Source of the DNA: Paludibacteraceae bacterium | GTDB taxonomy: Bacteria; Bacillota_I; Bacilli_A; RFN20; CAG-826 | NCBI GenBank assembly: GCA_963621535.1 | Contig: CAVFEQ010000001.1 | Span: forward strand, 18,040-82,039 | Reading direction: 5' to 3' | DNA length: 64,000 nt | Part shown: in pieces, positions 14,583 to 47,479 of the stretch | How the letters are laid out: the number at the start of each line of letters is the position of its first letter | How positions within the stretch are numbered: the first letter of the stretch is position 1 | The notes under the pieces: generated by a model | Told to the model about the DNA's origin: nothing | What the model saw: only the letters and a program-made list of their open reading frames with translations | Database searches by the model: none | Position numbers and translations under genes: made by a program

Positions 14583-17500
14583 GCGCTCATCCTGATTTCG
14601 TTGGCAAGCGTCACATAGGAGAAAGCGGTAGAAACCCCGTTGACTAGCCCATCGCCAAAGGTGCATGGGAAATCACTCGTTCCATAGGCGGGGGTTAAAA
14701 GGGTCGCGTCGATAGGGCCATGGAAGAAATAGTCCTGATAGGCGCTCGCAGCAATGGAGCCTTTAAGAACGAGATAATCATAGGCATCAGAGGCGTAAAT
14801 GAGGTTCACAAGAGCTTTAGCAATGCCGCTCATGGTATCGAAATCCCCGCAAATCCCGTCTAACTTAGTCTTTTGCTCGCTATTAAGCAAGCAAGCAGTC
14901 AAAGACATGGAGGAAGTGTCCACGAACGGAGAAGAAGAGGAGATGGAAATCCCAGAGGAGAGCAAAGCCGTAAAGGCAACTCCCTTCCCTTCGCTAGAAG
15001 CTAAGGAAGAGAGATTAGCAAAACTATAGGCCTTGGCTGAGGAATCATAGCCATAGGCATCAAATGAGGTGGTGAGCAGGCTTCTTTGATCGTCCGTGTT
15101 AAGGAAAGCAAGGCGCTCTTTCTCCGGGGCGCTAGGCGAAGATAAGGAGATTGCGCCAAGCGAGTGAGAAGAAAGCTGGGCATAGCCTATTCTCTCCTCA
15201 ACCCTGTCGTTGAGGGCCCCGGCGATGAGATGTTTAGCGAAAACGGACGTCGAGGAAGCTTTTGTTTTGTCATAGCTCGGATCAACCTCGTTATCGATGT
15301 GGTAAGAGTAGGCAAGCTCGCTGGAAGAGAGGAAATCCGCATAACCGTTTTCTTCTTTGCCAAGGAGGCTAGAGGCATAACGGTAGAGAGCGGTCTTAGT
15401 CGACTCCTCAGAAGAAGAAGAGAAAGCGACATTCACAATTTCATGAACGATGTCGCTGTATTCGGCGCCAACTAAGGCGGTCTCGAAGAACTTGCCCTCC
15501 GCAAAGGGGTCATCCGAACCTTTGATGAGATTATCGATGGAGGAATAGCGTGCCGCAGCAGGGACGCTAGTCCCGTAGTCCTCAGCAAGCTTAGGTGCGT
15601 CCACCGCATCAAGCAGGTTCACCTTGACGCCCGAAGAAGCATCTTCCAAAGAGAACATCTTATAAAAGGAGTAGGCGCTTGAAGAGAAGGTTGCTGTCGC
15701 GGAGGAAACAGGGCGGAAATCCACATCGAAGCAAGACTCGGCGTATATGCTTGAGCCCATGACGATAGAGGCGATGCCATAAAGAGGGACGCCTGCCTCA
15801 TAGGCCTCTTTCAAGGCCGAGGCGCTTCCTTCAAAGGAATAATAGGTCCCGTCAGTTTTTCTTAGGGAGCAAAGGAACCATTCAAGAGCATCCGAATCCT
15901 TGTTCCCTTTCTCCAAACTGCCATAAGGCAAATAATATTTCGCCGTGTCGAACATATAAGAAAGCTCGCCGGGCTTTGAGATGGTGAACTTAAAATTGCA
16001 TCCGATTTTGCCTAGCCCGATATCCCATTTATTGGCGGTGACGTCGTAAGAAGAGGCGACGAGGCTGTTTAAGTTCGTCTCGTATGTCCCATCGCCATCC
16101 AAATCGCCCATAAGAGTCGAGACTTCGGTGCCGTCATAGGTAGAAGAAGAGAAGTAAAGATCCGCGTATTTCAAACCGTTCTCCAAGAAAGAGGCGTCGG
16201 AGACGAAGGTGTCACCAGTTCCAAGGCTTATCTTGGATGTCGAGAAAGTCTCAACGCCAAGGCCTTTGGTGCCGCTTTCCCCGGAAGTGAGGAATGAGGC
16301 GATGGTGGTCGCAAGCGCATCCTCGCACACCCTGCTTCTTCCCACAAGGCGCAGCAGCTCCATGGCTTTTCCTGGGCTCAGTTTCTTAAGGAATTCAGTC
16401 GAGGTGTCGACCTTGCCTTCGCTCGTGAGCAAATCGGATTCCTGCGCGATTCTAATCAGGCCGGATTTCCCTTCATCATCGGTCGTCAGTGTCTCGATTT
16501 CCACGCGCCAATCGCTATCTAAGACAAGGGCTTTGATCTTCCCGTGCAATTTAAGCTCGGCGGCAAGGCTTTCATCGTAGCCTGCATCAACAAGATAGGC
16601 AAAATCATGGTAGGCGTCGAAAGAGCGAGTGGCCAAACCGGAATTGTTGTAAACAAGATAAACCACCTGCTCGAAAACGGTGAGGTCGCTTGTGACCTTC
16701 GCATCGGCGGATGGCGTGTAGCTTTCGTTCTCCCATCCTTTGTTATAGGTGCTGGAATATTGGTTTACCCCCGTCTGATGGAAGAGGAGGGAATCATCTA
16801 ACTCCCAGAGGAATTGACGGAGCAAATAGGGGTCAATCGTGTCAAGCCTATCATCTTCCAAATCGTCTTTGTTGCTCTCGATGAGGTCGAGCAGATCGAC
16901 GAGCAGATCGATTTCGCTATCATCGTAGCCGCGCGAATAATCAATGGTCGCGGTCGCGTTCTCCGCATCGTAGAAATAGGGATAGTAATAATTCGTGAGG
17001 CTCAAATCGAGACCATCGACGGTGAGTTCGCCATTAGAGAGATATTTGCCTAGCGCGTTGATCGGGACGTCTTTAAGCAAAAGGCAATGCGAGAGGTCTT
17101 TTAGAAGTGAAGAAAGAGTAGAGCTCGACTTCGTGAGGGTCGCAAAATCGATTTCCCCTCCTTCAAGAAGAGAAAGAAGAGAATGCTCATTGAGGTTTGA
17201 TAAGAGATGAGAAAGCCCTCCATCACCTTTTCCGATGACCTCGTAAAATGCATTGGATTGCTGGTTATCTAAAGTGTATTTCTTGTAATTTCCATCATCG
17301 CCAATGCCTAAAGTCGAGGAGACGAGGTACTTGTATTTGGCCGAAGGGGTATCCGTGCCATATTTAATGTCTTTTGGAGAAGAGGCGGAGCAGATCAGAT
17401 CATCCAAACCCATCTGGGCGAGGATGTCGGTGAGGAAGGCCTGCGCGGAGGTGAGGTCCTTTTTCTCGCCGCTTTGCGCGGTTGTGGAATTGAATACGCG

Positions 17501-24421: not shown

Positions 24422-25012
24422 ATGCAAAAAACAATTGTTTTAGCGACGAGCAACCAAGGCAAGGTAAAAGAGTTCGTCGACCTTCTAGGCCCCATCGGAT
24501 ACAAAGTAATCTCGTTGAAAGAAGCGGGGATAATTTCTAATCCCGTCGAGAACGGACTCACCTACAAAGAGAATTGCTTCATCAAGGCCCATGACGCATC
24601 GCTGAAGACTGATTTTCCCGTCCTCGCTGACGACTCAGGCATTGAAATCGAGGCCATGGGCAATAAACCCGGCGTCCACACGGCGAGATATGCGCAAGAG
24701 CAAGGCGGCTTCCCGGCTGTGTTCAACGTGATCTTTGATCACTTAAAAGGCAAGGATAACCGAAAAGCAGCATTCCATTGCTGCTTATGCCTCATCCCAG
24801 GCAAAGACGAAGATCCTCTATTCTTTGAAGGGGTTTGCCCTGGGGAAATCCTTTTCGAGGCAAAGGGAACGAAAGGCTTTGGCTACGATCCGATTTTCCA
24901 TAGTTACGAGGCCAATGAGGATTTTGGAACTGCCAACGAAGAGATCAAAAACAAGTATTCCCATCGGGGAAAAGCCGCTCAAAAGCTGAAAGACTATCTC
25001 CTCACCAAGTAA
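24422..25012 (+). CDS. rdgB: Non-canonical purine NTP (dITP/XTP) pyrophosphatase, RdgB/HAM1 family
   Basis: MQKTIVLATSNQGKVKEF...ADDSGIEI...GFGYDPIF...SHRG. The ORF-track TTG at 24341 adds an unlikely 27-aa extension. Confidence 0.9.
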   Translation: MQKTIVLATSNQGKVKEFVDLLGPIGYKVISLKEAGIISNPVENGLTYKENCFIKAHDASLKTDFPVLADDSGIEIEAMGNKPGVHTARYAQEQGGFPAVFNVIFDHLKGKDNRKAAFHCCLCLIPGKDEDPLFFEGVCPGEILFEAKGTKGFGYDPIFHSYEANEDFGTANEEIKNKYSHRGKAAQKLKDYLLTK

Positions 25013-25742
25013 GGCAAAGGCCGATGATAATGAGCATTTGGGCCAACATGTAAGTGCCCATAATGAAGAAATCCCGTCGTTTGACGTCTTTTACGAACGA
25101 GGTCTTCAGCAAGAAGCAATCGGATACGATAAAACTAACCCCGCCAAGGGCGCAAAGGAAGAGGAACTCGAATTTTCCGAAGAAGCAGCCAACCACGGCG
25201 AAAAGGAAATCCAAAACCAGCATCCCGAAATAAAGCGTTCCCCCAAAAGCCATGTGCGGCTCCTTGACCGCCTTATGGATGCGATGGTAGCCCAGGAAGC
25301 AAAATAAGATGTAAAACACCGCAAAACCCACGTAAACTTCCCAGGGGAAATCGCAAATAAGGCAATATCCAGCGATATAAAAGATATGCCCGATCAAAAA
25401 GGAAAGCGTTCCGAACACCATCGGGTAGACTTTGTGTTTCTTCAGCAAGAAGAAATCCCCAACGACCCCAAAAGAGGCGCCGACATATATCACCCAAGCT
25501 TCGCTTTTCCAAAAAGCAGCCATCGCCACCAGGAAGCCGACGCAGAAGCATTTCGTGATTTTCCTGCCCAAATCGTTTTCGACGAACGCGAAATAAAGCT
25601 CTATTCCCGTTGCAAGAATGGACAAGCCAAAGAAAACGTAAGCGACCGCGGGGATGTTAGAGAAAGCTGAGTTGCCCATAAGCAATCCTATAATAGCGAT
25701 TTTCGTTTTTATCTTCCATCGGGCTTCGTATAATTCAATCAA
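25002..25742 (-). CDS. YhhN-family (lysoplasmalogenase-like) membrane protein
   Basis: Polytopic, 246 aa, with YhhN-like GDFFLL and LIGHIFY blocks. Start uncertain (TTG 25742 or ATG 25679). Confidence 0.6.
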   Translation of the reverse strand: MIELYEARWKIKTKIAIIGLLMGNSAFSNIPAVAYVFFGLSILATGIELYFAFVENDLGRKITKCFCVGFLVAMAAFWKSEAWVIYVGASFGVVGDFFLLKKHKVYPMVFGTLSFLIGHIFYIAGYCLICDFPWEVYVGFAVFYILFCFLGYHRIHKAVKEPHMAFGGTLYFGMLVLDFLFAVVGCFFGKFEFLFLCALGGVSFIVSDCFLLKTSFVKDVKRRDFFIMGTYMLAQMLIIIGLCLTW

Positions 25743-25756
25743 AAGAGGCGATAAGC

Positions 25757-27106
25757 ATGGACGACAATAAAAAACTCGGCGCGAAAAAATGGATTGCTTT
25801 CATTTTGCTTGGCTTAGCGGGGCAGCTCGCTTGGGCCATCGAGAACAACTACATCAATCTTTGGGTCTATTCCCAATCCGGCCGCGCGGACTTCATCACT
25901 TGGATGACCGTAGGAAGCGCAATCGTCGCCACCGTCACGACTTTCCTCATGGGCGCCTTGTCTGATCGTCTTGGCAAAAGACGGGTCTTCATCGCCGGCG
26001 GATACACCATTTGGGGATTTTTCGTCTTCGCCTTTGCTCTTGCCTCTTTGCGAAATGGAGTGAAGCTATGCGGGGAAGGGGCAAATGCCCTTCTTTGGGT
26101 TGGCATCATGAACGTGATCGTCGACTGCGTGATGACCTTCCTTGGTTCAACGGGGAATGATGCTTGCTTCAACGCGATGGTCACCGAGCAAACCAACGAG
26201 AAAAATCGCCCGTTCGTCGAAACCATCCTTTCCGTTTTGCCTCTTGTCGCCTTGATCATGATGATGGGGATAGGGATGATCTTCGGAGTGCCCGGCAGCC
26301 AGCAAGAAAACGAAACAATCGCCGAATACGCCTCGCGCATCGCAACCCCTTGGCTTTATTTCTTTTTGGTATGTGGGATTCTTACCACGCTTGTTGGGAT
26401 CGCCGGCTTCTTCATTCTCCCAAAAGACAAAGCCATCAAGGACCAAAGAAGCGGCTACTTCAAAAACCTCGCTTATGGCTTCTTGCCTAGCTCAATCAAG
26501 AAGCACCCCCGGTTTTACATCGCTCTCCTCGCTTTTCTTTTCTTCAACATCGCCGTCGATTCGTTCATGCCCTACTACATGGTCTATTTCCAAAGCTTCG
26601 CCGAACTTAATTTCTATCTGGCGATGGGAATCATCGTCGCCGTGGCAATCGTCGGTTCCATCGCCATCGGAGCTTTCCTTGATAAGATCGGCCATCTTAA
26701 GGTCTTGATACCGGCGATTCTGCTGATGGGAAGCGGCGCGCTTCTGCTTTTCCTAAGCCAAGCGTCATGGGTTTTGATCTTCGGAGGCTCTTTGCTGATG
26801 CTAGGCTATCTCGTGGGGACCGCGGTTTTAGGCGCGGAAATCCGCGACCAAACCCCTAAAGGGAAAGAGGGCTCCCTACAAGGCGTGCGCATGATCTTCG
26901 CGGTTATGCTGCCCATGATCATCGGCAGCAATCTCTCCTTAGCAATCTTCCAGCAGCCTGGCCTAGACGCCTATGGGCAGACGACGAAAACGCCAGATCA
27001 TTGGATGTTCCTGGTGACCTGCATTTCGGCTTTATTGACCATTCTTCCATCCCTTTGGCTTATCTTGGCGAATAGAAAAGGCGAAGAAAAAGGGAATCAG
27101 GACTGA
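25757..27106 (+). CDS. MFS transporter
   Basis: 449 aa, about 12 hydrophobic segments. Loop 2-3 motif GALSDRLGKRR. Confidence 0.85.
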   Translation: MDDNKKLGAKKWIAFILLGLAGQLAWAIENNYINLWVYSQSGRADFITWMTVGSAIVATVTTFLMGALSDRLGKRRVFIAGGYTIWGFFVFAFALASLRNGVKLCGEGANALLWVGIMNVIVDCVMTFLGSTGNDACFNAMVTEQTNEKNRPFVETILSVLPLVALIMMMGIGMIFGVPGSQQENETIAEYASRIATPWLYFFLVCGILTTLVGIAGFFILPKDKAIKDQRSGYFKNLAYGFLPSSIKKHPRFYIALLAFLFFNIAVDSFMPYYMVYFQSFAELNFYLAMGIIVAVAIVGSIAIGAFLDKIGHLKVLIPAILLMGSGALLLFLSQASWVLIFGGSLLMLGYLVGTAVLGAEIRDQTPKGKEGSLQGVRMIFAVMLPMIIGSNLSLAIFQQPGLDAYGQTTKTPDHWMFLVTCISALLTILPSLWLILANRKGEEKGNQD

Positions 27107-28884
27107 AACTCGACGTTTGCTTCGCCCGCCCCGATGTTTTTCCATTCGGAGGGGTGCTCGACCTCGCTTTCGAAGCGTTCTTCGCTCATTTCGACGGTGA
27201 TCTTATGGCCGTCCTGTCCCAATTTGGAGCAACCATAGAAAGCGCGCGAGCCAATGGAGAGAAGGCTTGAAGGAAGGGTAAAACCGGACAGGGAATAAAG
27301 CTGAGAAAAAGCGAAGGAATCCGCCTTTTGCAGGCCGGGGATTTCAAGCGTTTCCAAAGATCTATTCCCGCGGAAGGCGTTAGAGGAAACGTATTTAACA
27401 GAGCGAGGCAGGCTAACTTTCGTAAGGGAAGAGAAATAGCTTTCTGTCCCATCCCCGAATTTTTTGATCCCCACGAGCTCGAAAGCTCCAACGCCAGGGA
27501 AGGCATTAAGATCAAGCAAATCGCTTTCAACAAGCTCGCTGCTGCTGCGGCTAGAGGAGGGGACGAACTTATCCATCAAATAGCCACCCCATTCTTCGGA
27601 ATATTCGTAGGTGAATTGATCGCCTTGCTCGCCGTTGCCGTCTAGGGATTTAGGAACAATGACAGGATACAAAGAAAGGTCTTTGTCCGCTGCGCTTGAA
27701 GGATCGACCACGTCAGATTTGTCTACGTCGTTTTTTTCTATGCTCCAAAGCCCGGTGAAAATCTCGTCGCTGGAGAGAAGGCTATCATCGATCACCGTTA
27801 GAAGAACATCCCCAAGGGAGGATCCATAAGAAACCGATTTTTCGGCGATTAACGTTTCGTCGTTGCTCAGGAAGGTAATCTTGAATTCTTCAGGCGAGAC
27901 CTCGAAAACAGGGGATAAAGTACAATCGTAAAGAATGTGTTCACAATCCACGGGCTTGTCTTTTAGCTCGTCTATCCCCTCCCCATAGGTGCCCTCCCAT
28001 CCTTTAAAGGTGTAAACCTTGTGATCGGAGGTGTAATCAGGCAAAACCTTCGTGACTTTGCTCCCGTAGATAACGTTCTCGGTTTCGCTAAGTATTTCGC
28101 TCTTAGTTGAATCTTTGTAAAAGGAGACCGTATAAGACTTCGATTCAGGGCCTGCGAAAAAGGCGGTCAGCTTCAAATCGTCTTTGATTTCAATGTCGGT
28201 TTCAAAGAGCTCGTCCAGGGTATAGGTTCCGCCATCATATTCGTATCCGGCGAAAGCATAGGTTTGGTAATAATATTTCGGCAGCGGGTAATCCAAAGTA
28301 AGGGCGGTTTTAGCCGCTTCTATAGAGCCATATTCTTTCATTAAAGCATCGCTTAGTTTAGTTCCGTGTTCAACGGAGGCTGTATAGATAGAGGTGTAAT
28401 CCGCGTTTTCAATAGTCACGTTATACGTGTTGATTTTTTCGCTAAAATGAGCAAAAACTGCGCAATTCCCCTTTATTTCTTTCAAATCAACCTTAGTGTT
28501 GGCTAAATTTTCCGCAGTTGAAGATGGCTCATCCGTCGTTTCTTCGTCCAAAGCGGTTTCTTCATAAAAGCCAACCCAGGAATCCCAAGTATAGGCGTAG
28601 CCTTCTTTCGTTCGGCGGCTGTTCTCATAGTCTATCGCCTTGCCGTTTTCATCTTTCACGAGGCTAGTCAAGCGCGCGGTTTTATTCGCGCCACCTTTGA
28701 CGACATAGCCTTCGCCGATTTTCGTTGCCAAATTTTTATTGAGCTTGCCGGGTTCATATTCGATGTCGTCATAATCCGTGTAAAACTCAATGGTATAAAC
28801 ATCCGCATCCTGCTTAACGTTGCAAGATAACAAGGCAGAAGAGAGAACAAGAAGTCCAAATGCGGCGCGGAGTTTTGCGTTCAT
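27097..28884 (-). CDS. Surface lipoprotein with Listeria/Bacteroides-type repeats and C-terminal BspA-type leucine-rich repeats
   Basis: Signal peptide with lipobox LLSC. Repeats end in YTFKGWEG / FAGYEYDG / FTGLWS. The C-terminus has LRR units (SVKYVSSNAFRGNRSLETLEIP..., LLSIGSRAFYGCSKL). Confidence 0.75.
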   Translation of the reverse strand: MNAKLRAAFGLLVLSSALLSCNVKQDADVYTIEFYTDYDDIEYEPGKLNKNLATKIGEGYVVKGGANKTARLTSLVKDENGKAIDYENSRRTKEGYAYTWDSWVGFYEETALDEETTDEPSSTAENLANTKVDLKEIKGNCAVFAHFSEKINTYNVTIENADYTSIYTASVEHGTKLSDALMKEYGSIEAAKTALTLDYPLPKYYYQTYAFAGYEYDGGTYTLDELFETDIEIKDDLKLTAFFAGPESKSYTVSFYKDSTKSEILSETENVIYGSKVTKVLPDYTSDHKVYTFKGWEGTYGEGIDELKDKPVDCEHILYDCTLSPVFEVSPEEFKITFLSNDETLIAEKSVSYGSSLGDVLLTVIDDSLLSSDEIFTGLWSIEKNDVDKSDVVDPSSAADKDLSLYPVIVPKSLDGNGEQGDQFTYEYSEEWGGYLMDKFVPSSSRSSSELVESDLLDLNAFPGVGAFELVGIKKFGDGTESYFSSLTKVSLPRSVKYVSSNAFRGNRSLETLEIPGLQKADSFAFSQLYSLSGFTLPSSLLSIGSRAFYGCSKLGQDGHKITVEMSEERFESEVEHPSEWKNIGAGEANVEFQS

Positions 28885-32699: not shown

Positions 32700-33797
32700 A
32701 TGCTATTTAAAAAGTCCGGAAAAAAAGAAAACCCCGAAAGCGAAACCTCCTTAGTCGCGGAAAAAGAAGCCGCAAAAGAGGAGATGAGCGCGAATCCATC
32801 CGCGGAAAGCGTCCCCAATACAAAGGCGCAAGAGGGTGACAAAAGCGGCAAAAGAAAGCCGAAGTCACGCAAAAAAGTCATCATCACCTCTTCCATCATC
32901 GGAACCGCGGCAATCGGCTTAGGGGTCGTCACGGGCTTCTTAGCTCACAGTTTTCTGAATCCCGTCGGAGGCGATTATTCCAACGTCGACGCCGACGCTT
33001 TGACTGACAACATCGAAATCGCCCGAAAAAAATATGAGGACGCAAAGAAAGCCGGAACGCCTCTAGAAGAAGCCCTGAAACCCTCTGAGATGGTGAACCT
33101 CTCCCTGGATATGTTCGCTTCGCTAGGCTCCACCAAAGCAGTCGGCCTAGGCTCAGCCTTCTCGATGGGCGTGACCCAGGTAATCCAATCCATCCAGATA
33201 AAAAATGGGGAAAGGTTCTTCGAGGAATCCAACTCCACCTCAGCCTTCGTCAACCTCTACGACCGAATGTACCAAGAAGGCGACACCACCAAAACCTACT
33301 GGGGCAAAAGCAGTGATTACTCTTCACACGAAGAGAAAATCTACACAAACGAGGCATACGCCGAGCTCATGGGCCGCAAGGTGAGCGACTCGATGATCTA
33401 TGTCATCTCCACGAAAACCGCGATCGTCGACGAAGACAAAGTCAACTCGGACAAGGGCGTCTCGCGAATCACCAAGGAAAACGGGGGCTATACGGTAGAC
33501 CTCGAGCTCCAAAAGAAAAAATCCGTGGTGAATTACGTGAAGCAGATGAAGAACATCTCCGGATTAACCGGATACCCAACCTTCGATTATTGCCACCTCA
33601 CCTTCCACCTAGACGAAGACCTGATGCCGCTTGATTACACTTCCTACGAAAAGTATCACGCCACCAAGCAAGGGGTCGGCATATCCACCGCTATCGACGG
33701 AACGTTAACCACCTACTTCTACCATGGTGAGACCTACGAAATCCCGACCTTGGAAACCGAGACTCAATCCGTTTACGAAAGCTTAACCGCCAATTGA
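32700..33797 (+). CDS. TM-anchored ORFan, ~365 aa (cassette gene A)
   Basis: Lys/Glu-rich N-terminus, one TM (VIITSSIIGTAAIGLGVVTGFLA), then a ~270-aa mixed domain with no recognised motif. Start uncertain (32700 or 32631); neither has a Shine-Dalgarno sequence. Confidence 0.65.
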   Translation: MLFKKSGKKENPESETSLVAEKEAAKEEMSANPSAESVPNTKAQEGDKSGKRKPKSRKKVIITSSIIGTAAIGLGVVTGFLAHSFLNPVGGDYSNVDADALTDNIEIARKKYEDAKKAGTPLEEALKPSEMVNLSLDMFASLGSTKAVGLGSAFSMGVTQVIQSIQIKNGERFFEESNSTSAFVNLYDRMYQEGDTTKTYWGKSSDYSSHEEKIYTNEAYAELMGRKVSDSMIYVISTKTAIVDEDKVNSDKGVSRITKENGGYTVDLELQKKKSVVNYVKQMKNISGLTGYPTFDYCHLTFHLDEDLMPLDYTSYEKYHATKQGVGISTAIDGTLTTYFYHGETYEIPTLETETQSVYESLTAN

Positions 33798-33814
33798 ATT
33801 TGAAAGGAGCGATT

Positions 33815-36800
33815 ATGAAAACAAACAAAAGCCAAAAACATCTTAGCCCAAAGAAAAAAGCCCTGCTCTTCAACTCCGGCCTTTTCCTAGCTCTCTTCGG
33901 AATCACCGCGGGGACCACCTACTTCATGATTCCCAACAAAGGAATGGCGGAAGATGAGGACATCGTCGACGTGGATGATGATGACGTCGACCCCGCTTTG
34001 ACCGGCAAGCAGCGCTTCATTTCCAACCTCACCAGCAGCGCGACTTCCGGATTGAATCTCAAGTTCAACGTCTTGGACGCCTATTTCCCAGGGAAAGACA
34101 AAAACGACACCTCCAAAGGCAATTTCATCAACGGGAAAGGAACCCAACTCGCCTTCGCCATGGATGGGCTCTCTCTCCACGGCATCAGCCTCGGATTAAA
34201 AGCCAAACTCGATTACAACGGCTACAATAGGCAACTCGACCTCGTTAAGCGCCTTGATGACATTTACTTTGCCATCAATGACCTAGATAACGAAACCTAC
34301 AACTTCAAATACAAAGCCTCCATCGAGCCTAAAGTCACGGGCGAACGCGACGAAATCACCGGAGGCATCCTCCAATACGAATACGGCGACGTCGATTGGA
34401 TCATCTCCGACGTTCTCGAGATTCTTTCAAACGGGGGCATCAAGGTCGACTTCCCCTCGATCGATTTAAGCAGTCTCAGCTCTTCTTCCGATTCCTCTAG
34501 CGCTTCCGACGAAGATGGCTCTAACGCCATGTCCGACATCTTGGGCTCGCTTAACGACATGGTCGAAGACGCCGCTCATTCCTATTTCACCTGGAATCTG
34601 CCTTTAGGCGAAGAAACCCTCTCCATCGGCTTCACTTACGATAGTGACTACTATCTCAGCGGCGTCGATTTCCCAGCGAAAACATTCGACGGCTCTGAAC
34701 AAGCAAGCTATTCGATCAAAAACGGCGATACCCTCATCGGCACCATCCGTGCCAGCGCAACCATCGAAACCGGTAGCGAGGCAATCGAGTGGACTTCCTT
34801 CATCTCCGGCGATCTCAACGAATACCGCGACATCAAAGACAGCGCTTCGCTTTTCCGCAAAATCGCCCGTTACGTCGCTAATCCCCAATTCGGATTGAAG
34901 ACCACGAACTCCTTGAACATCAACTCAGGAAAAGGGCTTGCTCTCACCCATTATAAGAAAGATGGGAGCAACCTCACTTCTGAGGTAATCGAGACCGCTT
35001 CCCTTGATCTTTCCGCCAGCGCCGACTTCACCGGTGGGCTGCAGAATTTCCTCGCCGACCTCTCTTTCTCCGCCGACAACGCCGAGGCAAGCATTTCCGC
35101 GGCTTATCTAGAAGAGAACGCCTACCTCAATATCGATGACCTTTTGATGGCCAAGGTCTCCAAGACCAATCTCGATGCCCTGTTCGCCAAAACCGCTTCC
35201 GCGGTCAACGAAAATAGCGAAGTCGAAGAAAGCGCTGAAGAAGCGAGCGCGATTGTCGACCTCGTTTCGACAGTCCTTGACAACTTCCCGACGATCAAAA
35301 GCTTCACCGAGGGCCATTACGAGAAGGCGTTTGATTTCATCAAATCCATCGATGGCTCCGACAATAATCTTAGCATCACCTTTGATCTGAGCCCCGTTAA
35401 AATCGATGGGGAGGTCACCGTCAACATCGACGGGACGTATGCAGATGAAGATAACGGCGTCGACACCTATCTTTCCGGCATCACCTTCAAAGAAGTAAAG
35501 CTAAGCGCCTTCCAGCTCGATGGCACTTTGTCTCTTGCCTCCTATTCATTGCCAAGCGTCGACATAAGCAGCTATGACGAGCTCATCCATCTCCCCGGCA
35601 TCAAGAACCAAATCGAGGAAATCACCTCCTCGAAAGAAGCCGCTCTCTTTTTGAAAGGAAGCGTCAAAACCGGGTCGACGGACACCATCGGCCAAACCAC
35701 AGGAGTCAACTTCTCTGGCGATCTTGGCTTCTCTTATGACAAGAAAACAGCCGGAATCAGCCTGACCGCCAATCAGGTCTCGAAGAACTATTCGCAGGAC
35801 CACCACTTCAAATTCGCCCTCACAGGCGATGGGAACGATTTCACGGAAACCGCCTTCAAATACGATTCAATGAATGACTCCGCCATCGATAGCGCCTCGG
35901 GCTTAGACGAAGAAGGAAAGGCCAGAACCAACCCACGCTCCCTTAAGCCCGTCACCGGGCAAATGTCGATCTCCTCGATGAAAGACATCATCTCCACCAT
36001 CAAAAGCGTCATCCCCGAGGAAGAAGAAAGCGAAACCTCTTCCTTCCAAAAGATCGCAAGCTCAATCGGAAGCTTAGTCGGCGGGGATTTGGCAAGCGAC
36101 CTCATCAACAAGAAATACTCCGGCCTCTTCGAGAAAAAGATCCTGGCCGAGAAAGCAAGCCTAGGCGGGGATGAAAACAAATTCGTTCTAAACGGCGCCT
36201 TGTTCGGACTAGAAGAGAATCCGACCGTCACTATCTCTTACCTCGCCAATAGCGAAGAATCTAGCGGCGGCTTCAAGAGCTTCGATTTCGCGATGAGCAA
36301 AATCAACGTTGGCTTAGGCATCGAATCCACCAAAGACGTCTCCGAAAGCATCCTCAATCCTTTAAGCGGCGAGGACACTTCTTCCTACACCGACTTCAAC
36401 ACGGTCAAGACCCTCGCTGAATACGCAACCGGATCGACGAAGCTTGGCCAAATCGCCTCGGGAGACACCTCCGTCTATGACGTCTCGCTCAACGTCGCCC
36501 TCAATATTGGCAAGACGAAAATCGACCTCATCGGCGTAAGCTTAAACATCGCAAGCGAAAAGGATTACATCAAAGCGCATCTTTCCATTCCGTTCATGCC
36601 ACTGATCAAAGGGGTCAACGCTCCTGATAGCGCCGTCTATTTCCGCGATCACGAATATGAAGGAAGACGCGCGGTCGATCTTTATTATTCTTATCAAAAA
36701 GGCGACGAGAACTACGGCGACATCTATATCACCCGCAACTCGAGCTATGGCAAAGTGACCGAAGTCAAAGACACGGTCCAATTGACCGGCAAAGACCTCG

Positions 36801-37438
36801 TCGCGAAAACAGGCGACGAAGGCGGAACCTATTCCTATAACGGCATCGGCTGGCTTCTTGAATACGTCCTTGGGGTCAATGAAAGCTATCTGAGAAAAGA
36901 AAACGCGCCCGTAGAGGAAAACGCCACCGCTGAGGCGAGTCAAAAAGAAGGCAGCAGCCTCTTTGATAACGCCTTCCCCCATCCAGAAGACTTCCTCAAA
37001 GAATACCAATACGATGAAGCGAGCCTCTCTTGGTCGCTTGGGGTCGATGTGGGCTCCTTGCTTGATGAAAGGGCCTTGCTTGGCGATGCCATGGTCACTG
37101 TCTCAGGCAAGAACGTCGCTTCAAGCGATTCCTCGACCTCTTGGAAGACCTTAAGCGGGCTAGCCATCAGCTTCGGCCTAGTCCTTGGCAATCCCGACGG
37201 CTCCCATCAAATCGTCCCGGCGAGCGCGGAAATTGAGCTCGCTTTGGACAATGTTTCCACCGGCGTCTACCAAGACACCTGGACCAATCTCACCGTCAAT
37301 GACTTCACCTCCGTCGTCACTTACAACGAGCAAGGCGAAGTGTCCTTCGCTTATGGCGATGAATACACGAAACATTATAAGAAAGAAGGAGAAGCCTCTT
37401 TCTTGCCGGGCAACTACTACGTTGGCGTGACTTGCTAA
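33815..37438 (+). CDS. TM-anchored large beta-rich ORFan, ~1207 aa (cassette gene B)
   Basis: AAAGGAG lies 5 nt upstream of ATG 33815. N-terminus KKKALLFNSGLFLALFGITAGTTYF is a TM or uncleaved signal. Collinear paralog of gene C. Confidence 0.85.
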   Translation: MKTNKSQKHLSPKKKALLFNSGLFLALFGITAGTTYFMIPNKGMAEDEDIVDVDDDDVDPALTGKQRFISNLTSSATSGLNLKFNVLDAYFPGKDKNDTSKGNFINGKGTQLAFAMDGLSLHGISLGLKAKLDYNGYNRQLDLVKRLDDIYFAINDLDNETYNFKYKASIEPKVTGERDEITGGILQYEYGDVDWIISDVLEILSNGGIKVDFPSIDLSSLSSSSDSSSASDEDGSNAMSDILGSLNDMVEDAAHSYFTWNLPLGEETLSIGFTYDSDYYLSGVDFPAKTFDGSEQASYSIKNGDTLIGTIRASATIETGSEAIEWTSFISGDLNEYRDIKDSASLFRKIARYVANPQFGLKTTNSLNINSGKGLALTHYKKDGSNLTSEVIETASLDLSASADFTGGLQNFLADLSFSADNAEASISAAYLEENAYLNIDDLLMAKVSKTNLDALFAKTASAVNENSEVEESAEEASAIVDLVSTVLDNFPTIKSFTEGHYEKAFDFIKSIDGSDNNLSITFDLSPVKIDGEVTVNIDGTYADEDNGVDTYLSGITFKEVKLSAFQLDGTLSLASYSLPSVDISSYDELIHLPGIKNQIEEITSSKEAALFLKGSVKTGSTDTIGQTTGVNFSGDLGFSYDKKTAGISLTANQVSKNYSQDHHFKFALTGDGNDFTETAFKYDSMNDSAIDSASGLDEEGKARTNPRSLKPVTGQMSISSMKDIISTIKSVIPEEEESETSSFQKIASSIGSLVGGDLASDLINKKYSGLFEKKILAEKASLGGDENKFVLNGALFGLEENPTVTISYLANSEESSGGFKSFDFAMSKINVGLGIESTKDVSESILNPLSGEDTSSYTDFNTVKTLAEYATGSTKLGQIASGDTSVYDVSLNVALNIGKTKIDLIGVSLNIASEKDYIKAHLSIPFMPLIKGVNAPDSAVYFRDHEYEGRRAVDLYYSYQKGDENYGDIYITRNSSYGKVTEVKDTVQLTGKDLVAKTGDEGGTYSYNGIGWLLEYVLGVNESYLRKENAPVEENATAEASQKEGSSLFDNAFPHPEDFLKEYQYDEASLSWSLGVDVGSLLDERALLGDAMVTVSGKNVASSDSSTSWKTLSGLAISFGLVLGNPDGSHQIVPASAEIELALDNVSTGVYQDTWTNLTVNDFTSVVTYNEQGEVSFAYGDEYTKHYKKEGEASFLPGNYYVGVTC

Positions 37439-37439
37439 A

Positions 37440-40400
37440 ATGCCTAGAGAAGAGAAAAGCCAAAACCCTATCCGGGAGCGAAAGAAATCTTTCTCTCCCT
37501 TAAAGCGCCTAGCTCTAGGCGTTTTGGCTTTTTCTATGGCTTCCTGCTCTTTTTCTAAGACAACAAGAGAAGATCAAGGCGAAAGCAAGAGCGAAGAAAG
37601 CAGCCACGTGAGCGAAAGCGTCGGCGCCAAGCGCCTCGCGGAGAGCCTAACAAACTCCCTCACCTCAGGCTTATCGCTCACGCTTGAAGAAATGACCTTG
37701 AAGGCGGATGAGAACAATGTCTTCGAATTCAGCAACGGCTCTCTCGCTTTCGATTTAAAAGAGCTTTCCTTGCACGGCTTGAATTTCGCTTTGCAGGCCG
37801 AGGGTAGCTACAACGGTTCCGGAGGGAGATCCATTGACGCAAGGCTTGTAGATGACGAGCTTTATTTCGCCCTGGAAGCGCCAGGATCTTCAACTGCCAC
37901 CTACAACGTCGCCTACAAAGTCTCCACAAGCGCTTATCGCTATGAGACGGAAGATAGCCGCGATCCCTTGACCGGAGGCATCAAGCAATACGAATTCGGC
38001 AGACTCGACTGGGTTTTGGAAGACATCCTCCAAATCCTTTCTTCCTACGGATACGAGGTGAAGCCAAATTTCAAAAACACCTCCAAGGTCGACTTCGGAA
38101 AAATCTCTTCTTCCTTGGATGAACTTAACGAAATCGACGCAGAAAGCCATTATTTTGTTTGGAATCTTCCTTTAGGCGATACTGTTTATTCCATCGGCTT
38201 GCAAGGCGATGAGGATTATTATCTTTCTAAAATCGATTTCCCGGCGAAGGGGATCGGGGCTTCTGGAACATTAAGCAATGGCATGGAATTAAGCCTTTCC
38301 GCATCCTTTGATTATAACGGGGCTCAAATCACGCCCCCGGAGAATGCCTCAGCTTACCTTTCTTTGGACAATTCCATTGATCTATGGGAAAGAATTGCCA
38401 CCTACGCCGGCAAGCTTTCCTTTGATGTCTCCACCGTTCACAACGAAAACGGCAACGAGGAAGAAGGATTGCTATTGACCCATCACGAAGACGCCGTAGA
38501 GAGCACCGCGACCACTATCGGGCGCCAGGGATTCGACGAAAAGCTCACCTTCTCCCTTGCTGGCGGGGCCAATTTCCAAAATCAGAGAATCAACGACCTT
38601 TCCATCAGCGCCGTCTTCAAAGGCGAGAAGCAAACCAAGAAGCTGTCCGGACATTACGTCCAAGGAGATAACGGCAAAGAGGCTTACGTAGACGTAAACG
38701 GGATCTTGAAGGCAAAGACCAGCAAGACCACCGCGGACGCCTTCTTCAGCGCTTTTGCCGATTTATTGGCGGACGATTCCATCAAAAACGAATACCTCTC
38801 TTCCTTATTTTCCTCCCTTGGCTCCATCACCGATGCTTTCGCAAGCCTGAGAGATAGTCTGATTGGAAAAGACATCGCCGAAAACCATTATGAGCATTTC
38901 CTTGAGGCGTTGATCGCTTTAGAAAGCAAGGACAATCAAATCGAGGCAACCTTCGATTTTGGCAAAGCGGGCGGGGAAGGGAAACTCATCTTCCGTTTAA
39001 GCAGCAGCGACTTCGCTTTGGCTTCCATCACCTTCGCCTCTTTCTCCATTGGCGGCTTCGGCGTGGAAGGAACCTTAAGGATCAGCGATTACTCCGGCCC
39101 CTCTTCCTTTGACAAAGAGCAATACGAAGAGATGGATCATCTGCCCAGCTTGACCGATCAGCTGCAAAACCTCTATCAGCACCATTCCATGAAAGCCAGC
39201 GTGCGCGGCTATGTGCTCGACCGCAGCACAACCGCCTATTCTACCGACACGCGCTTCTCTTCGCTAAACGGCAAAGTCATCACCGAGCAAGGGTTCACCC
39301 TCGAAGGCGATTTCGCCTTCAACCTTCAGGAAAAAGCGGCGCGCGCGAATGGGGTTTTCCTTGACCGCAAGGCCGATTACCTAAATGAGCACGCGATCGC
39401 CTTGCAATTAGACGGAGAAATCGGCGCAAGCACGGAAACAGGCGACATGCTTTTCTCTTATGACTCAAGCAACACCTTGAAAAACGCTAACGCCGAGGGC
39501 TATGGCGCTTTGGATTATGGCAACATCAGCGAGCCCGACCAAGAAACGCTCTATGGCAAATTCAGCGTCGCCTCCTTGAACGACATTTTAGAGCTCGCGA
39601 CCACCTTATTGAGCTCAGACGACCCGCGCTTCACCAAATTCACTTCGAATGCGAATACCCTAGCCACCACCCTCGTGGCCAAAATCTCCCAAGGCCAATT
39701 CGCCCCGCTGCTAAGCGAGCAGATTCTTAGAAGCGTGAGCCGCTCCGGCGATAAAATCGCTGCCGTTGTCGCAAAAGAGGTTTTAGGAAGCGAAGAGGAC
39801 GTCCCTCTAAACATCGAATTCGACGCGAACGGACTTTCCTCAATCGATTTCAAATTAATCACCGAAAGCAAAGAGATTTACTTCAAAATCGACGCAGAAG
39901 TCCCTCAAACGACTCTATCAAAAGCCGATTTGCAAGTTTCTGAGCTGCAATCGAAAAGGGATTCGATGACCGATTTCTCTTCCCTTTCAACCCTGCTTGA
40001 ATACGCTTTGGGATCGGCCACGCTAGGAGAAGACGACAAAAATACGTCCACGTATCACCTAAGTGGAACGGCACAAATAAAAATCCTTTCCGTTTTCACC
40101 GAGAAAGTCCCCTTTTCGATTTATGTCTCTTTAGACGGCGCCGAAGTGAAAGTCATAGGGACAATTGAGGTCCCGATGGTTGTTGGAGTCAACGGAGGAA
40201 GCACACTCGGAGGAACGCGCTACGTGGAATTTTATTTCCATACCTCGGGGAATGATTCAGACGGAACGATCTTCTTCCACCGCGTGAGTTACGCAAAAGG
40301 GCTCACGAGCCTAGCGACCTCCGTCAGCGAAGATTGGGCGAAAGTCAAAACAAGCGATTTCACTGCCAACATCATGAACTGGATGCTTGGCTATGTGATG

Positions 40401-40910
40401 GGGATGAACTCGACGATCATGAACCAAATAACCAAACCAAGCTCAGAAAAAGGATCCTCCCTGCACGGAGAGGAATTGATTTCTTCCTACGCCCATTCCG
40501 CTTCTAACGGGACGCAGATCTGGAACGCGAAGATGGATTTGAGCTCATTGTCCAGCTCCTTGACTTCACCCTTAGAGATCAAAATCGAGGGAAAGGAAGT
40601 TAACGTCGGAAGTACAAAGCAAAAAACCTTAACCGCCCTAAGCGGCAGCGTTGGTTTAGTCTCAGTGATTTCCATCTCCTTTAACGCCGCATTAGCCAAC
40701 GTTTCTACTGGGACTTACGTTTCCGTTTGGAACAGGAACTCCAGCTCCTCGGATGACAAATTGACCTTCCATTCCAAAAACGACAAATCGGTCAATAGCA
40801 ATGAAGTCCACGCCGCCGATGCCTACGCCGCCAACTACTATGACGATGGCTATGTAACTAGCGGCTATTTTGCCTCCGCCACCACTTACGTGACCTATCC
40901 CATCAGTTAA
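37440..40910 (+). CDS. Large beta-rich lipoprotein ORFan, 1156 aa (cassette gene C, paralog of B)
   Basis: Starts 1 nt after the stop of B. Signal peptide with lipobox-like MASC. Shares blocks with B, for example HYFVWNLPLGDTVYSIGLQGDEDYYLSKIDFPAK against SYFTWNLPLGEETLSIGFTYDSDYYLSGVDFPAK. Confidence 0.85.
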   Translation: MPREEKSQNPIRERKKSFSPLKRLALGVLAFSMASCSFSKTTREDQGESKSEESSHVSESVGAKRLAESLTNSLTSGLSLTLEEMTLKADENNVFEFSNGSLAFDLKELSLHGLNFALQAEGSYNGSGGRSIDARLVDDELYFALEAPGSSTATYNVAYKVSTSAYRYETEDSRDPLTGGIKQYEFGRLDWVLEDILQILSSYGYEVKPNFKNTSKVDFGKISSSLDELNEIDAESHYFVWNLPLGDTVYSIGLQGDEDYYLSKIDFPAKGIGASGTLSNGMELSLSASFDYNGAQITPPENASAYLSLDNSIDLWERIATYAGKLSFDVSTVHNENGNEEEGLLLTHHEDAVESTATTIGRQGFDEKLTFSLAGGANFQNQRINDLSISAVFKGEKQTKKLSGHYVQGDNGKEAYVDVNGILKAKTSKTTADAFFSAFADLLADDSIKNEYLSSLFSSLGSITDAFASLRDSLIGKDIAENHYEHFLEALIALESKDNQIEATFDFGKAGGEGKLIFRLSSSDFALASITFASFSIGGFGVEGTLRISDYSGPSSFDKEQYEEMDHLPSLTDQLQNLYQHHSMKASVRGYVLDRSTTAYSTDTRFSSLNGKVITEQGFTLEGDFAFNLQEKAARANGVFLDRKADYLNEHAIALQLDGEIGASTETGDMLFSYDSSNTLKNANAEGYGALDYGNISEPDQETLYGKFSVASLNDILELATTLLSSDDPRFTKFTSNANTLATTLVAKISQGQFAPLLSEQILRSVSRSGDKIAAVVAKEVLGSEEDVPLNIEFDANGLSSIDFKLITESKEIYFKIDAEVPQTTLSKADLQVSELQSKRDSMTDFSSLSTLLEYALGSATLGEDDKNTSTYHLSGTAQIKILSVFTEKVPFSIYVSLDGAEVKVIGTIEVPMVVGVNGGSTLGGTRYVEFYFHTSGNDSDGTIFFHRVSYAKGLTSLATSVSEDWAKVKTSDFTANIMNWMLGYVMGMNSTIMNQITKPSSEKGSSLHGEELISSYAHSASNGTQIWNAKMDLSSLSSSLTSPLEIKIEGKEVNVGSTKQKTLTALSGSVGLVSVISISFNAALANVSTGTYVSVWNRNSSSSDDKLTFHSKNDKSVNSNEVHAADAYAANYYDDGYVTSGYFASATTYVTYPIS

Positions 40911-40954
40911 GGAAGGGTTTGCCCAAAGGTTTTCTCGCGCCTAAAATAAAAGGC

Positions 40955-41581
40955 ATGGAAAACCTCGCCCTAACGGTTGGAAAGAATCTCTCTGCCCTGC
41001 GCAAAGCTAAAGGGCTCACGCAGCAAGAGCTCGCCCAACAGATCAATTACAGTGACAAATCCCTCTCCAAATGGGAGCTTGGCTACGCTTTGCCTTCCGT
41101 TGACGTTTTGCTTGATATCGCGCGTTTCTACGGGGTCACCATCGATTACCTCACGCAGGAGCATCTTCCCGAAGCCATTGAGCAGCAAGTGACAGAGGAC
41201 AAGAAAAAAGACGCCAATGCCTCCAACAACGCCGTTATTCTCGCGATGAGCCTCACCTTCGTTTTGCTGGTGGCGATGTCGATCTTTTTCTCCTCCTATT
41301 TCATTCACGAAGGACAAGACATCCCCCTTTACGTTTGGTCGGTCTACGTCTGGATGGTGCCGGTCATGTGTTTCCTCTCCGCTTGGGAGGTGCGTTGGTT
41401 CTACCATAACCGCGCGGCTTTCTGGACTTTGGCAAGCTGCTTCCTATGGACGCTTCTTTTGGCTTTCTGCTTCTATTTCCAGTTTTTCCGCCTACCCAGC
41501 GAAAACGTGTGGTTCATCTTGGTCGTAGGCATCCCGATTCAGATCATCATGATCCTTCTCACCAAATATAAACGCGGCTAG
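40955..41581 (+). CDS. Membrane-tethered XRE-family HTH regulator
   Basis: N-terminus NLSALRKAKGLTQQELAQQINYSDKSLSKWELG is a Cro/C1 HTH. The C-terminal half has 4 hydrophobic helices. An alternative TTG start lies at 40919. Confidence 0.8.
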   Translation: MENLALTVGKNLSALRKAKGLTQQELAQQINYSDKSLSKWELGYALPSVDVLLDIARFYGVTIDYLTQEHLPEAIEQQVTEDKKKDANASNNAVILAMSLTFVLLVAMSIFFSSYFIHEGQDIPLYVWSVYVWMVPVMCFLSAWEVRWFYHNRAAFWTLASCFLWTLLLAFCFYFQFFRLPSENVWFILVVGIPIQIIMILLTKYKRG

Positions 41582-45769: not shown

Positions 45770-47479
45770 TTAGTCAAACAGAGCATCGAGCATATCGTCG
45801 TGCCCGTAAAAATAATCGGTGTTTAACTCCTTATCTAGGGCGGCCCCGGATTGCACCTCTTTGAAGGTGATGTCATTGCCGTTTATCTTCGCGCATTTCA
45901 AAATCGAAGGCCCAGACATATGAAAGGAAGAGCCGTCGGCATTGACGAATCCGACGATCGGGCAGGCGCCGCCACCGCTTCTTTCGCCATAGATCTTAGC
46001 CGCATTCGAATAAGAGGCGTTGCAGGCGATGTAATTCGCCGCGGAGAAAGTAAGGGCGGAAGTGAGGATCCCCCAATTATAGGAACTATAGGCGTCATCA
46101 TCTTCATAATCGCCATCTTCGTTCGCGTCTATTTTCATTTTGATCACATAGCCCGAAGAAGAAAGCATGTTCGTGGCCCCGTAGCAAAGATCCTCATCGC
46201 TCATCAATCCCAACATGCGGAAGGCGGCGCCCATGTTGCCTCCCCCGTTTCTACTCAAATCGAAAAGGATGTTTTTGATTCCGCCGTGTTTGCCGATTCT
46301 AGAGAGCATCTCCTTCATATAGTAGAAGGAATCCTTCGTATAGGCGTCTTCCTTCAAATTGCCGTTTTCGTCGTGCAAATCGGAAGAGGCTCCGGTTTGG
46401 ATTGGGCTTTGCGCGACGATGATCGCAGTGTCGTCGTAGTAACGGACCGGCTCATTCTCAGGGTAGGCGGCCTTATAATCGGCTTCTAGTTTCGCGCTTT
46501 CCTCAATATAGGCGTTTCTCACCTTCCCATAAGTCGGCCTTAATGAGGTTGAGTTGCAGAAGAAAGAATAATAATCATAGCTCGTGTGCAGTTCGTCGAG
46601 CTTTTCAAATAAGGTGGTGAAATACCCACTTCTAGCTTCCTCTTCGCTTGAGGAAGAAAGCTTCGTCACGACCTCATCCCCAAGGTAAGAGGAAAAGGAA
46701 TCGATCTTGTAATAATCCTTTAAGCCATAGTAGTTGTCCATGATGAAAAGGAAATGCTTCGCGTTCATGGAAGCGATGTCGCTAGGGATGCTTCCGCCTT
46801 GCCAGGTGCGAGTTGAAAAAGACTTCTTCAAAGCCTCCTCGGATTCAGACATCGCAAAGCCGAAATAGGTCCCGTAATAAGCGTTCCCGTTAAAGTAGAA
46901 ATTGTGATAATTGCTCGAGCAAAAAAGGGTGTTCGCCACGCAGAAGGGAAGCAAAACCAAGTCCTTTTTGCGGTAGATTTCAATGCCATAAGCCCCTAAA
47001 TCGAAGACTTTGCTGGACTCCTGCGTCGTTTTTGTGTCCACGGTTTTGAGCGCGAAGCTGTAATTGGTCTCGGAGGTCCCATAAAGCAAATTGAAGAAAG
47101 AGATGGAACTTGCCGTGATGGTGTTCTTCTCATCGTCAATCGTCAGGGTGAACGTCTGGCTTTGCGTCCTCCAGGAAGCGACGAGCTTCCTCTCTGAAGG
47201 AGTTGAATAAGAGATGTACTTCGTTTGGTAAAGCCCTTCAAGAGAAGTCACGAAAGAAGAAACATCGACGTAAGGCAAAGCGCCATCATTCACGTAATAG
47301 GTTTTGAGGCTGGTCGCTTTGATCGAATACTCCTCGTTGTAGTTATAAAGAGGGTGATAGACGCTTTTGACGGTGATGTCGTCTTCATAATTCGAAGAGG
47401 GCTCGCTTAAGAAGGCACACCCTGAAAGCGAGAAAAGGAGAGACAAGCAAGAGAAGGAAAGGAAGAATTGTTTTTTCAT
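45770..47479 (-). CDS. Lipoprotein with C-terminal S41 (tail-specific protease)-like domain
   Basis: Signal peptide with lipobox LSGC. C-terminal FDLSRNGGGNMGAAF and YGERSGGGA blocks resemble peptidase S41. Confidence 0.6.
   Translation of the reverse strand: MKKQFFLSFSCLSLLFSLSGCAFLSEPSSNYEDDITVKSVYHPLYNYNEEYSIKATSLKTYYVNDGALPYVDVSSFVTSLEGLYQTKYISYSTPSERKLVASWRTQSQTFTLTIDDEKNTITASSISFFNLLYGTSETNYSFALKTVDTKTTQESSKVFDLGAYGIEIYRKKDLVLLPFCVANTLFCSSNYHNFYFNGNAYYGTYFGFAMSESEEALKKSFSTRTWQGGSIPSDIASMNAKHFLFIMDNYYGLKDYYKIDSFSSYLGDEVVTKLSSSSEEEARSGYFTTLFEKLDELHTSYDYYSFFCNSTSLRPTYGKVRNAYIEESAKLEADYKAAYPENEPVRYYDDTAIIVAQSPIQTGASSDLHDENGNLKEDAYTKDSFYYMKEMLSRIGKHGGIKNILFDLSRNGGGNMGAAFRMLGLMSDEDLCYGATNMLSSSGYVIKMKIDANEDGDYEDDDAYSSYNWGILTSALTFSAANYIACNASYSNAAKIYGERSGGGACPIVGFVNADGSSFHMSGPSILKCAKINGNDITFKEVQSGAALDKELNTDYFYGHDDMLDALFD

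Follow-up and report, generated by a model that had tools for sequence, protein, structure and literature searches.

A conserved module of membrane-anchored proteins in uncultured gut Bacilli, with predicted LolA/LprG-type folds, as a candidate surface lipid-binding complex

What is the role of three closely packed genes whose products are expected at the cell surface and match no described protein family? The genes, here called A, B and C, lie in a 64,000-nucleotide (nt) stretch of DNA from a genome titled Paludibacteraceae bacterium, assigned by GTDB to family CAG-826 of order RFN20 (contig CAVFEQ010000001.1, positions 18,040 to 82,039). This whole stretch is referred to as the window. In our analysis, the structure models of A and, in part, of C resembled lipid carriers of the LolA/LprG type, and the genes proved to belong to a conserved module that also includes a membrane-embedded regulator. 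On the basis of these models we favor, tentatively and with somewhat less than even confidence, the view that A, B and C assemble into a complex of LolA/LprG-type carriers that binds and transfers lipids at the cell surface. The features of the locus are as follows.

32700..33797, + strand: gene A, 365 amino acids (aa); from the open reading frame (ORF) scan, homologue clusters and alignment
33815..37438, + strand: gene B, 1207 aa, transmembrane (TM)-type, i. e. signal-anchor, paralogue; from the ORF and its Shine-Dalgarno sequence
37440..40910, + strand: gene C, 1156 aa, lipoprotein-type paralogue; from the ORF scan
40955..41581, + strand: membrane-embedded XRE-type regulator with HTH_3 domain and four C-terminal TM helices
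32495..32524, + strand: weak candidate for a sigma-70-like promoter (TTGAAA-18-AATATT) 5' of A; from a consensus scan

A preliminary description, made from the letters of the window alone, had presented A, B and C as co-directional genes packed almost without spacers. The ORF scan confirmed this (17 nt between A and B, 1 nt between B and C), and all peptide blocks quoted there were found in the translations. The proposed match in composition with the host held as well, the GC content of the cassette being 0.48-0.51 and that of the window about 0.50. GGAG stands 8 nt ahead of the B start codon (ATG at 33815) within a longer ORF that opens at 33794. For A, an alternative upstream ATG at 32631 yields the 388-aa form used by some database gene calls; in the alignment, A orthologues mostly start at MLFKK. 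The promoter candidate is weak, the region being poorer in sigma-70-like sites than shuffled sequence, and no convincing + strand terminator was found from A to the end of pepF. Compared with close orthologues, the ratio of nonsynonymous to synonymous substitution rates (dN/dS) was 0.07-0.19; dS is saturated and these values are approximate. Such low ratios indicate that the three are real genes under purifying selection.

B and C could be aligned from end to end in a single BLASTP alignment with 27% identity, 45% positives and an expectation value (E) of 6e-85, as the preliminary description had proposed. By their sequences B and C are thus collinear paralogs, with a similarity far beyond chance. 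The two differ in the way they are attached to the membrane. C carries the lipobox FSMAS-C36, which was counted as agreeing with the pattern [LVI][ASTVI][GAS]C of bacterial lipoproteins. A lipobox of the form L/M/F-[AST]-S-C was also matched by regular expression in nine C-type orthologues; the tenth, P0052, was not matched, but by eye it reads LSC. B has a hydrophobic segment at about residues 16-38 after KKK, which is borderline (mean Kyte-Doolittle value about 1.6), and ITAG|T behind it could be a cleavage site for signal peptidase I. For these two reasons the anchoring of B by a TM segment is only probable. This N-terminal helix (window 33860-33928) keeps the motif LALFG-x-TA-x-TTY-x-x-x-P across distant lineages, a conservation that is unusual for a plain anchor and points to a specific partner within the membrane or to a site of processing. 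It precedes a beta-rich ectodomain of about 1150 aa.

In A a single hydrophobic helix (residues 59-82) follows the stretch KRKPKSRKK, giving a layout of a K/E-rich cytoplasmic tail, one TM helix and an extracellular domain of about residues 95-355. The cytoplasmic K/E-rich extension of about 57 aa is confined to the closest relatives; distant orthologues begin just before the TM helix. Of the surface anchors proposed earlier, those of A and C therefore stand, and that of B is reduced to a probable one. With the TM helix of A, the uncleaved-looking helix of B and the lipobox of C, all three proteins are expected to be extracytoplasmic. A further mode of attachment was found at locus L030 (the fetched loci are given L numbers), where, in a lineage of low GC content (31%), a second B/C paralogue of 1344 aa (15418-19452) starts with the type IV pilin-like signal MKKRSGFTVIELIIVIAIMG and has no lipobox. 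Hence the B/C ectodomain family is anchored in at least three ways, by TM helix, by lipid and in a pseudopilin-like manner.

Sequence and profile searches of Pfam, NCBIfam and PDB gave no meaningful match for A, B, C or 25 family members. LolA, LolB, LppX_LprAFG, MucB_RseB, DUF2092, DUF4367 and other families of the clan did not match A, B or C even with E up to 1-10. A confident hit of B or C to a characterised family, which had been named as an outcome that would speak against a new surface system, was thus not obtained from these databases. The label of ORFans given to the three proteins is supported to this extent. In the strict sense it does not apply, since 318 clusters share the profile of B and C (see below).

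The structure of A was predicted with confidence. The AlphaFold2 model, made with 21 homologues, has a mean predicted local distance difference test (pLDDT) score of 81.7, with values >90 over most of the ectodomain, and a predicted template modelling (pTM) score of 0.74. It consists of two N-terminal helices, six strands, a helix and five strands with an inserted helix, i. e. 11 strands in all. In Foldseek comparison with the PDB the best match was LprG (3mh8/3mha/4zra; E 7e-6, probability 1.0, TM-score (TMt) 0.42-0.46); the matched LprG structures include the apo, the phosphatidylinositol mannoside-bound and the triacylglyceride-bound forms. Together, LprG, LolA and LolB (8t5t, 1iwm, 9tpm, 8orn) and the LolA-superfamily protein NE2245 were matched with probability 1.0, E 7e-6 to 4e-4 and TMt 0.32-0.54. 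Further matches were the ependymin-related EPD-BCP1 (TMt 0.54), an ApoB100 barrel and MTP, and then RseB. The top set consists almost entirely of lipid or acyl carriers (E 7e-6 to 1e-3, probability 0.97-1.0). The assignment of the A ectodomain to a single open half-barrel of the LolA/LolB/LprG type is well supported by this model.

25-Phosphosteroid lyase and VioE also appear among the fold matches of A and C. A possible interpretation is that the barrels are catalytic scaffolds as in these two enzymes and that A, B and C form a surface enzyme complex acting on lipids, sterols or surface polymers. The conservation of polar residues would suit this. A has the invariant motifs YFEESNS, DRMYQEGD, MGR and NYVKQMKNISGL in the alignment, with E175, E176, D188, R189, R226 and E317 as invariant polar positions and FEES, DRMY and MGR as invariant or near-invariant polar stretches; in B/C the invariant or near-invariant polar residues comprise five histidines (H112, H348, H567, H651, H1009) as well as D175, E185, E367 and R948. 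However, no sequence match to any enzyme family was found, the enzyme matches of A are lower in probability and TM-score than its carrier matches, and the conserved residues could equally form subunit interfaces. We consider the chances of a surface enzyme to be slim.

The model of C, made with 25 homologues, is of medium quality (pLDDT 72.4, pTM 0.49), and the geometry between its units is uncertain. It agrees with the earlier expectation that B and C are beta-rich. The order of secondary structure elements assigned by DSSP, helix, six strands, helices, five strands, occurs four times in tandem and matches the order in A. The four-unit layout was read from DSSP only. The units of C are:

37611..38339, + strand: unit D1, residues 58-300; from DSSP
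38346..39125, + strand: unit D2, residues 303-562; from DSSP and hhalign to D3
39135..39914, + strand: unit D3, residues 566-825; tandem duplicate of D2 by hhalign
39927..40859, + strand: unit D4, residues 830-1140; from DSSP, the best-modelled part (pLDDT 80-92)

D1 holds the most conserved motif of the family, D-x-x-TGGI-x-QYE[FY]G-x-LDW. D2 and D3 were aligned by hhalign in register over 211-218 columns (probability 84-90%, E 8e-6 to 7e-5). With the whole chain of C as the Foldseek query, probabilities >=0.9 were reached only by LolA of two species (2w7q, 8cgm), LprG, VioE and RseB, with TMt 0.29-0.45. Porins, ushers, LptD and ApoB100 followed as low-probability matches, barrels and ushers at <=0.3. 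A search of C against viral structures (BFVD) gave nothing >0.2 in probability except small barrel fragments. From these models a LolA-like nature of all four units of B and C is plausible. The half of D3 made of helices and five strands, a sub-unit of about 130 aa, is repeated many times in longer relatives. One giant relative, P0175 (4042 aa; L033, 9001-22597), contains at least seven copies of it and in addition 8 CBM_5_12 carbohydrate-binding modules.

The preliminary description had thought of a beta-solenoid or an AsmA/TamB-like groove in contact with another membrane. Such a continuous groove would superficially look alike, with an N-terminal anchor followed by long amphipathic antiparallel strands in units of 5-6 strands and a helix, and the LptD and ApoB100 matches, although of low probability, point in the same direction. 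But none of 25 members matched AsmA, AsmA_2 or TamB (DUF490) in Pfam with E up to 10, and no TamB, VPS13 or ATG2 structure was among the top 50 Foldseek matches of C, where LolA-type domains reached probabilities of 0.9-1.0. The sheets are antiparallel meanders with intervening helices and not solenoid-like, and only one membrane is expected in the host. This proposal was not supported, and we regard it as very improbable. The idea of lipid capture, which had been linked with it, fared better: it is supported by the LolA/LolB/LprG-type fold of A and of parts of C, and by lipid-related neighbours in distant lineages as described below.

The distribution of the genes supports a module that is restricted to certain lineages and inherited together. 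Word-indexed searches yielded 27-35 homologue clusters per protein (A 35, B 27), and a HMMER profile of B and C gave 318 representative clusters, with E≤1e-30 in 199 cases. All B/C-family clusters come from uncultured gut or rumen Bacilli of the RFN20/CAG-826-like type, and the only annotation on the relatives is 'hypothetical protein [Bacilli bacterium]'. A scan of GTDB species genomes, which used narrow alignments and reached mostly close lineages, gave 26 loci; among their credible titles are Candidatus Enteromonas, Candidatus Alloenteromonas pullistercoris and metagenome-assembled rumen genomes named 'Bacilli bacterium'. The records L001, L004, L007 and L017, which are fully syntenic with the RFN20-type region, are titled Parasutterella excrementihominis, uncultured Bacteroidales, Lachnospiraceae or Alistipes shahii. 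These titles look like taxonomic mislabels at the level of bins.

All ORFs of the window and of the fetched loci were searched by tblastn and hidden Markov models. In every locus with upstream DNA, A lies directly 5' of a gene of the B/C family, and the carrier loci range from 31 to 59% GC. An independent occurrence of the genes, which had been named as evidence against a common system, was not observed in any of these loci. The giant relative in L033 stands alone, with neither A nor the regulator. Genes for a cobW-like GTPase and CarD upstream of the module were considered as further members and rejected; they are syntenic only within the RFN20-type lineage.

The fourth gene of the module had been missed in the preliminary description. 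Its ORF opens with TTG at 40919, the likely start being M13 at 40955, and it encodes a helix-turn-helix domain (PF01381 HTH_3, E 2.7e-16, above the gathering score) with four C-terminal hydrophobic helices (HTH-4TM). Where the flanking sequence suffices, nearly every locus has a full-length orthologue at a distance of 0-8 kb; the one in L027 is 39% identical (E 1e-44). The gene follows C in the close relatives of the window, lies between B and C in more distant RFN20-type genomes and is placed divergently upstream of A in other lineages. In a lineage with GroESL, TyrRS and EzrA genes it is up to about 8 kb away. The position of this gene shifts among lineages while it stays with the module (window 40919-41581; L012-L014, L018-L021, L036). 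Several lineages have only one large protein, which is always of the TM type (B). Where a second copy exists, it has a lipobox, a signal peptide or, in one lineage, the type IV pilin-like N-terminus. Hence the ancestral module was regulator, A and B, and C is a lineage-specific duplicate. The trio that had been proposed as the unit is thus to be replaced by a core of HTH-4TM regulator, A and one TM-type B.

The constancy of this neighbour raises the possibility of an envelope sensor, in which LolA-fold ectodomains sense lipids or damage like RseB/MucB and control the XRE regulator by intramembrane contacts. No other neighbour of A and B is as constant as the HTH-4TM regulator, RseB is found among the Foldseek matches of A and C, and the TTYxxxP motif of the B-type helix suggests an intramembrane partner. 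Yet two proteins of 1,200 aa with about eight barrels would be extravagant for a sensor, and a divergent local regulator is most simply explained as an autoregulator. Moreover, no regulated protease or anti-sigma-like component is linked, and the giant relative in L033 occurs without the regulator. We give the sensor a small chance.

Candidatus Enteromonas, whose genomes measure about 1.2 Mb, belongs to family CAG-826 of GTDB order RFN20 (PMC8035907). For CAG-826 a lack of peptidoglycan has been predicted, and sortases are missing from RFN20 (PMC10868615). Without peptidoglycan and sortases, surface proteins must be membrane-anchored, as A, B and C are. The wall-less cell assumed in the preliminary description is in line with these predictions (PMC10868615). 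With Candidatus Enteromonas and Alloenteromonas, which belong to RFN20/CAG-826 (PMC8035907), as relatives, the host is plausibly wall-less.

In such a cell B and C, organised by A, could replace wall-anchored proteins as a structural coat or adhesin, with the half-barrels as scaffolds. They would then make up a protein layer anchored in the membrane or a complex that binds to the host or to particles. An adhesin complex had also been an option in the preliminary description. The proteins are large, beta-rich, membrane-anchored and extracytoplasmic, and the predicted lack of wall and sortases in the host family fits as well (PMC10868615). They evolve faster than their housekeeping neighbours, C being about 30% identical where pepF is 61% identical. 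The giant relative has its carbohydrate-binding modules, and the LolA fold is not always lipid-related (10.1101/2025.01.13.632879). However, Pfam and NCBIfam scans of A, B and C revealed none of the known adhesin, S-layer or autotransporter domains (Ig-like, LRR, SLH, LPXTG, autotransporter beta-domain). The strict collinearity, the residues that are invariant at deep divergence and the dN/dS of 0.07-0.19 are also unlike variable adhesins. A coat would leave the obligate LprG-like A, the membrane regulator and the lipid-related neighbours unexplained. The data give neither clear support nor a refutation for a coat or adhesin, and we consider this explanation to be rather unlikely.

The lipid-related neighbours bring the discussion back to the proposed lipid-binding complex. 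They were found in the following contexts.

L027: Esterase immediately downstream; PlsC and a DgkB-like kinase upstream; ABC-FtsX fusion downstream
L030: LPG_synthase_TM and a GT4 glycosyltransferase adjoining the regulator
L031: patatin-like phospholipase, 1.7 kb downstream
L033: Lipase_3 (class-3 lipase), 14 nt downstream of the 4042-aa relative
L035: Hydrolase_4 upstream; PAP2-GT2-PlsC operon directly downstream, then an ABC-FtsX (MacB-type) fusion

Lipid-related genes thus occur next to the module in five of about eight lineage-level contexts, with the class defined post hoc and the lineages not fully independent. As immediate neighbours they are more frequent than we would expect by chance.

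From these data we propose that the module is a conserved envelope system of uncultured gut and rumen Bacilli with reduced genomes, comprising RFN20/CAG-826-like and several related lineages. Its core would be the membrane-embedded XRE regulator, the small anchored A and a surface protein B of about 1,000-1,300 aa, with C as duplicated B. If A provides one half-barrel and B and C provide four units each, about nine carrier-like barrels per cassette would be present on the outer face of the only membrane. Acyl chains or lipids bound by the surface complex would be relayed between the cytoplasmic membrane and the surroundings of the cell (lipids of host or diet, vesicles, products of lipases). 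Possibly, the cell would use it for scavenging and insertion of lipids or for the handling of its own glycolipids and lipoproteins. The HTH-4TM protein would be a local regulator that senses the state of the membrane. In a more specific form, which we consider conceivable but doubtful on the basis of the models, the system would be an undescribed lipid-acquisition machine, with A as an LprG-type shuttle, a heterodimer of the four-barrel chains B and C as reservoir or relay for many lipids, and the XRE regulator tuning it. By analogy, and with the same doubt, such a machine could be seen as a counterpart of ApoB/MTP and a functional analogue of P116 that feeds the single membrane from host or dietary lipids.

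Several observations weigh against a lipid-carrying function. The whole-chain model of C has a pTM of just 0.49, and the Foldseek TM-scores are modest for both proteins (A 0.32-0.54, C 0.29-0.45). By hhalign no significant similarity was obtained between pairs of D units other than D2/D3, and no homology of A to the B/C units D1-D4 was detectable with or without secondary-structure scoring. The invariant polar residues of A and B/C look more like an interface or an active site than like a greasy cavity. VioE has the LolA fold and is an enzyme with a role unrelated to lipids. A non-lipid use of this fold is also known from GerS, which is an amidase activator (10.1101/2025.01.13.632879). The lineage of the window and the GroESL/TyrRS/EzrA lineage have housekeeping genes and no lipid genes next to the module, and the class of 'lipid-related' neighbours was set after the data had been seen. 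There is also no consistent linkage to a transporter: L027 and L035 are the only loci with ABC-FtsX fusions, at a distance of 3.5-6.5 kb downstream, and in the window no ABC transporter of the FtsX type adjoins the module. Finally, the window encodes an acyl-ACP thioesterase, and fatty-acid auxotrophy of the host is therefore not established.

How does the module compare with known systems? LprG and LppX, the mycobacterial glycolipid and triacylglyceride carriers, are the best structural match to A and also match C; they too are tethered to the outer face of the membrane, and C has a lipobox as LprG does. However, the sequences are not similar, A is attached through a TM helix and not by lipid, its constant partner is a multi-barrel protein of about 1,200 aa instead of a major facilitator superfamily (MFS) pump, and the host has no mycomembrane. 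With LolA/LolB, the top high-probability match for C and the source of many matches for A, the module shares the open half-barrel with a helical plug. In contrast to LolA, which is soluble, periplasmic and single-domain and works with LolCDE between two membranes, the domains of the module are membrane-tethered, four per chain, without Pfam match and in a monoderm, probably wall-less host; only two lineages have a MacB-type ABC transporter in the vicinity of the module. RseB/MucB is likewise a multi-domain LolA-like protein tied to a membrane-spanning transcription regulator and is among the fold matches. Yet RseB has about 300 aa and acts on an anti-sigma factor, whereas the module has at least four units per chain and an XRE-type HTH fused to four TM helices.

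Wall-less Mycoplasma pneumoniae relies on a dedicated surface lipid extractor, P116 (PMC10023570). We propose P116 as a functional analogue, since it is a large surface protein of a wall-less bacterium that extracts lipids without ATP (PMC10023570, PMC12487902). Its fold is different and unrelated, and it is a homodimer from a single gene and not a multi-gene module. No P116 match was found by sequence search of the PDB, and no P116 structure was among the top 50 Foldseek PDB matches of C. AsmA/TamB proteins with their repeating beta-groove share the N-terminal anchor, the long amphipathic beta-sheet and the presumed lipid ligand, but they form one continuous groove bridging two membranes, whereas the model of C looks like separate barrels. 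Our literature search brought up no earlier account of tandem LolA-like surface proteins in Mollicutes-related Bacilli, of the four-barrel architecture, of a pair of TM-anchored and lipoprotein paralogues or of the fixed gene association.

The fold class is known, while Pfam, NCBIfam and PDB contain none of the families A, B/C and HTH-4TM. Bacilli of RFN20, RF39 and related groups are frequent in the guts of humans and animals and have never been cultured, and little is known about how such cells, with small genomes and in part without a wall, build and maintain their envelope. The module is one of few large, deeply conserved and lineage-specific surface systems in these Bacilli and is undescribed in protein-family databases. 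If it binds and transports lipids, the LolA/LprG carrier fold would be extended to a tandem, membrane-tethered architecture in monoderms. A lipid relay would be a second, independent solution for lipid scavenging in wall-less bacteria after P116 (PMC10023570), and would hint at nutrients that might make RFN20-type organisms culturable. Should the role turn out to be structural, the analysis would still have defined three new protein families (A, B/C, HTH-4TM) and the rule of their association.

The remaining window is ordinary chromosome with an F-ATPase operon, glycerol kinase, peptidases, ClpB and two tRNAs. On the - strand, at 14579-21691, it contains another giant ORFan (2370 aa), which has no Pfam match and whose N-terminal part comprises about six hydrophobic helices. 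This protein was considered as a relative of B/C and rejected as unrelated to the family; the related locus L036 has a counterpart of 2308 aa at the equivalent site, beside Rce1-like and TraX genes. Two further proteins with predicted surface location are encoded on the - strand, a BspA-type LRR_5 protein of 595 aa with an N-terminal hydrophobic segment (27097-28884) and a protein of 569 aa with an S41 peptidase domain (45770-47479). About 6 kb upstream of A, at 25002-27106, lies a divergent gene pair for a membrane protein of the YhhN family, which includes lysoplasmalogenases, and an MFS transporter. The same pair recurs near the module in L031, and a link to lipid remodelling is possible.

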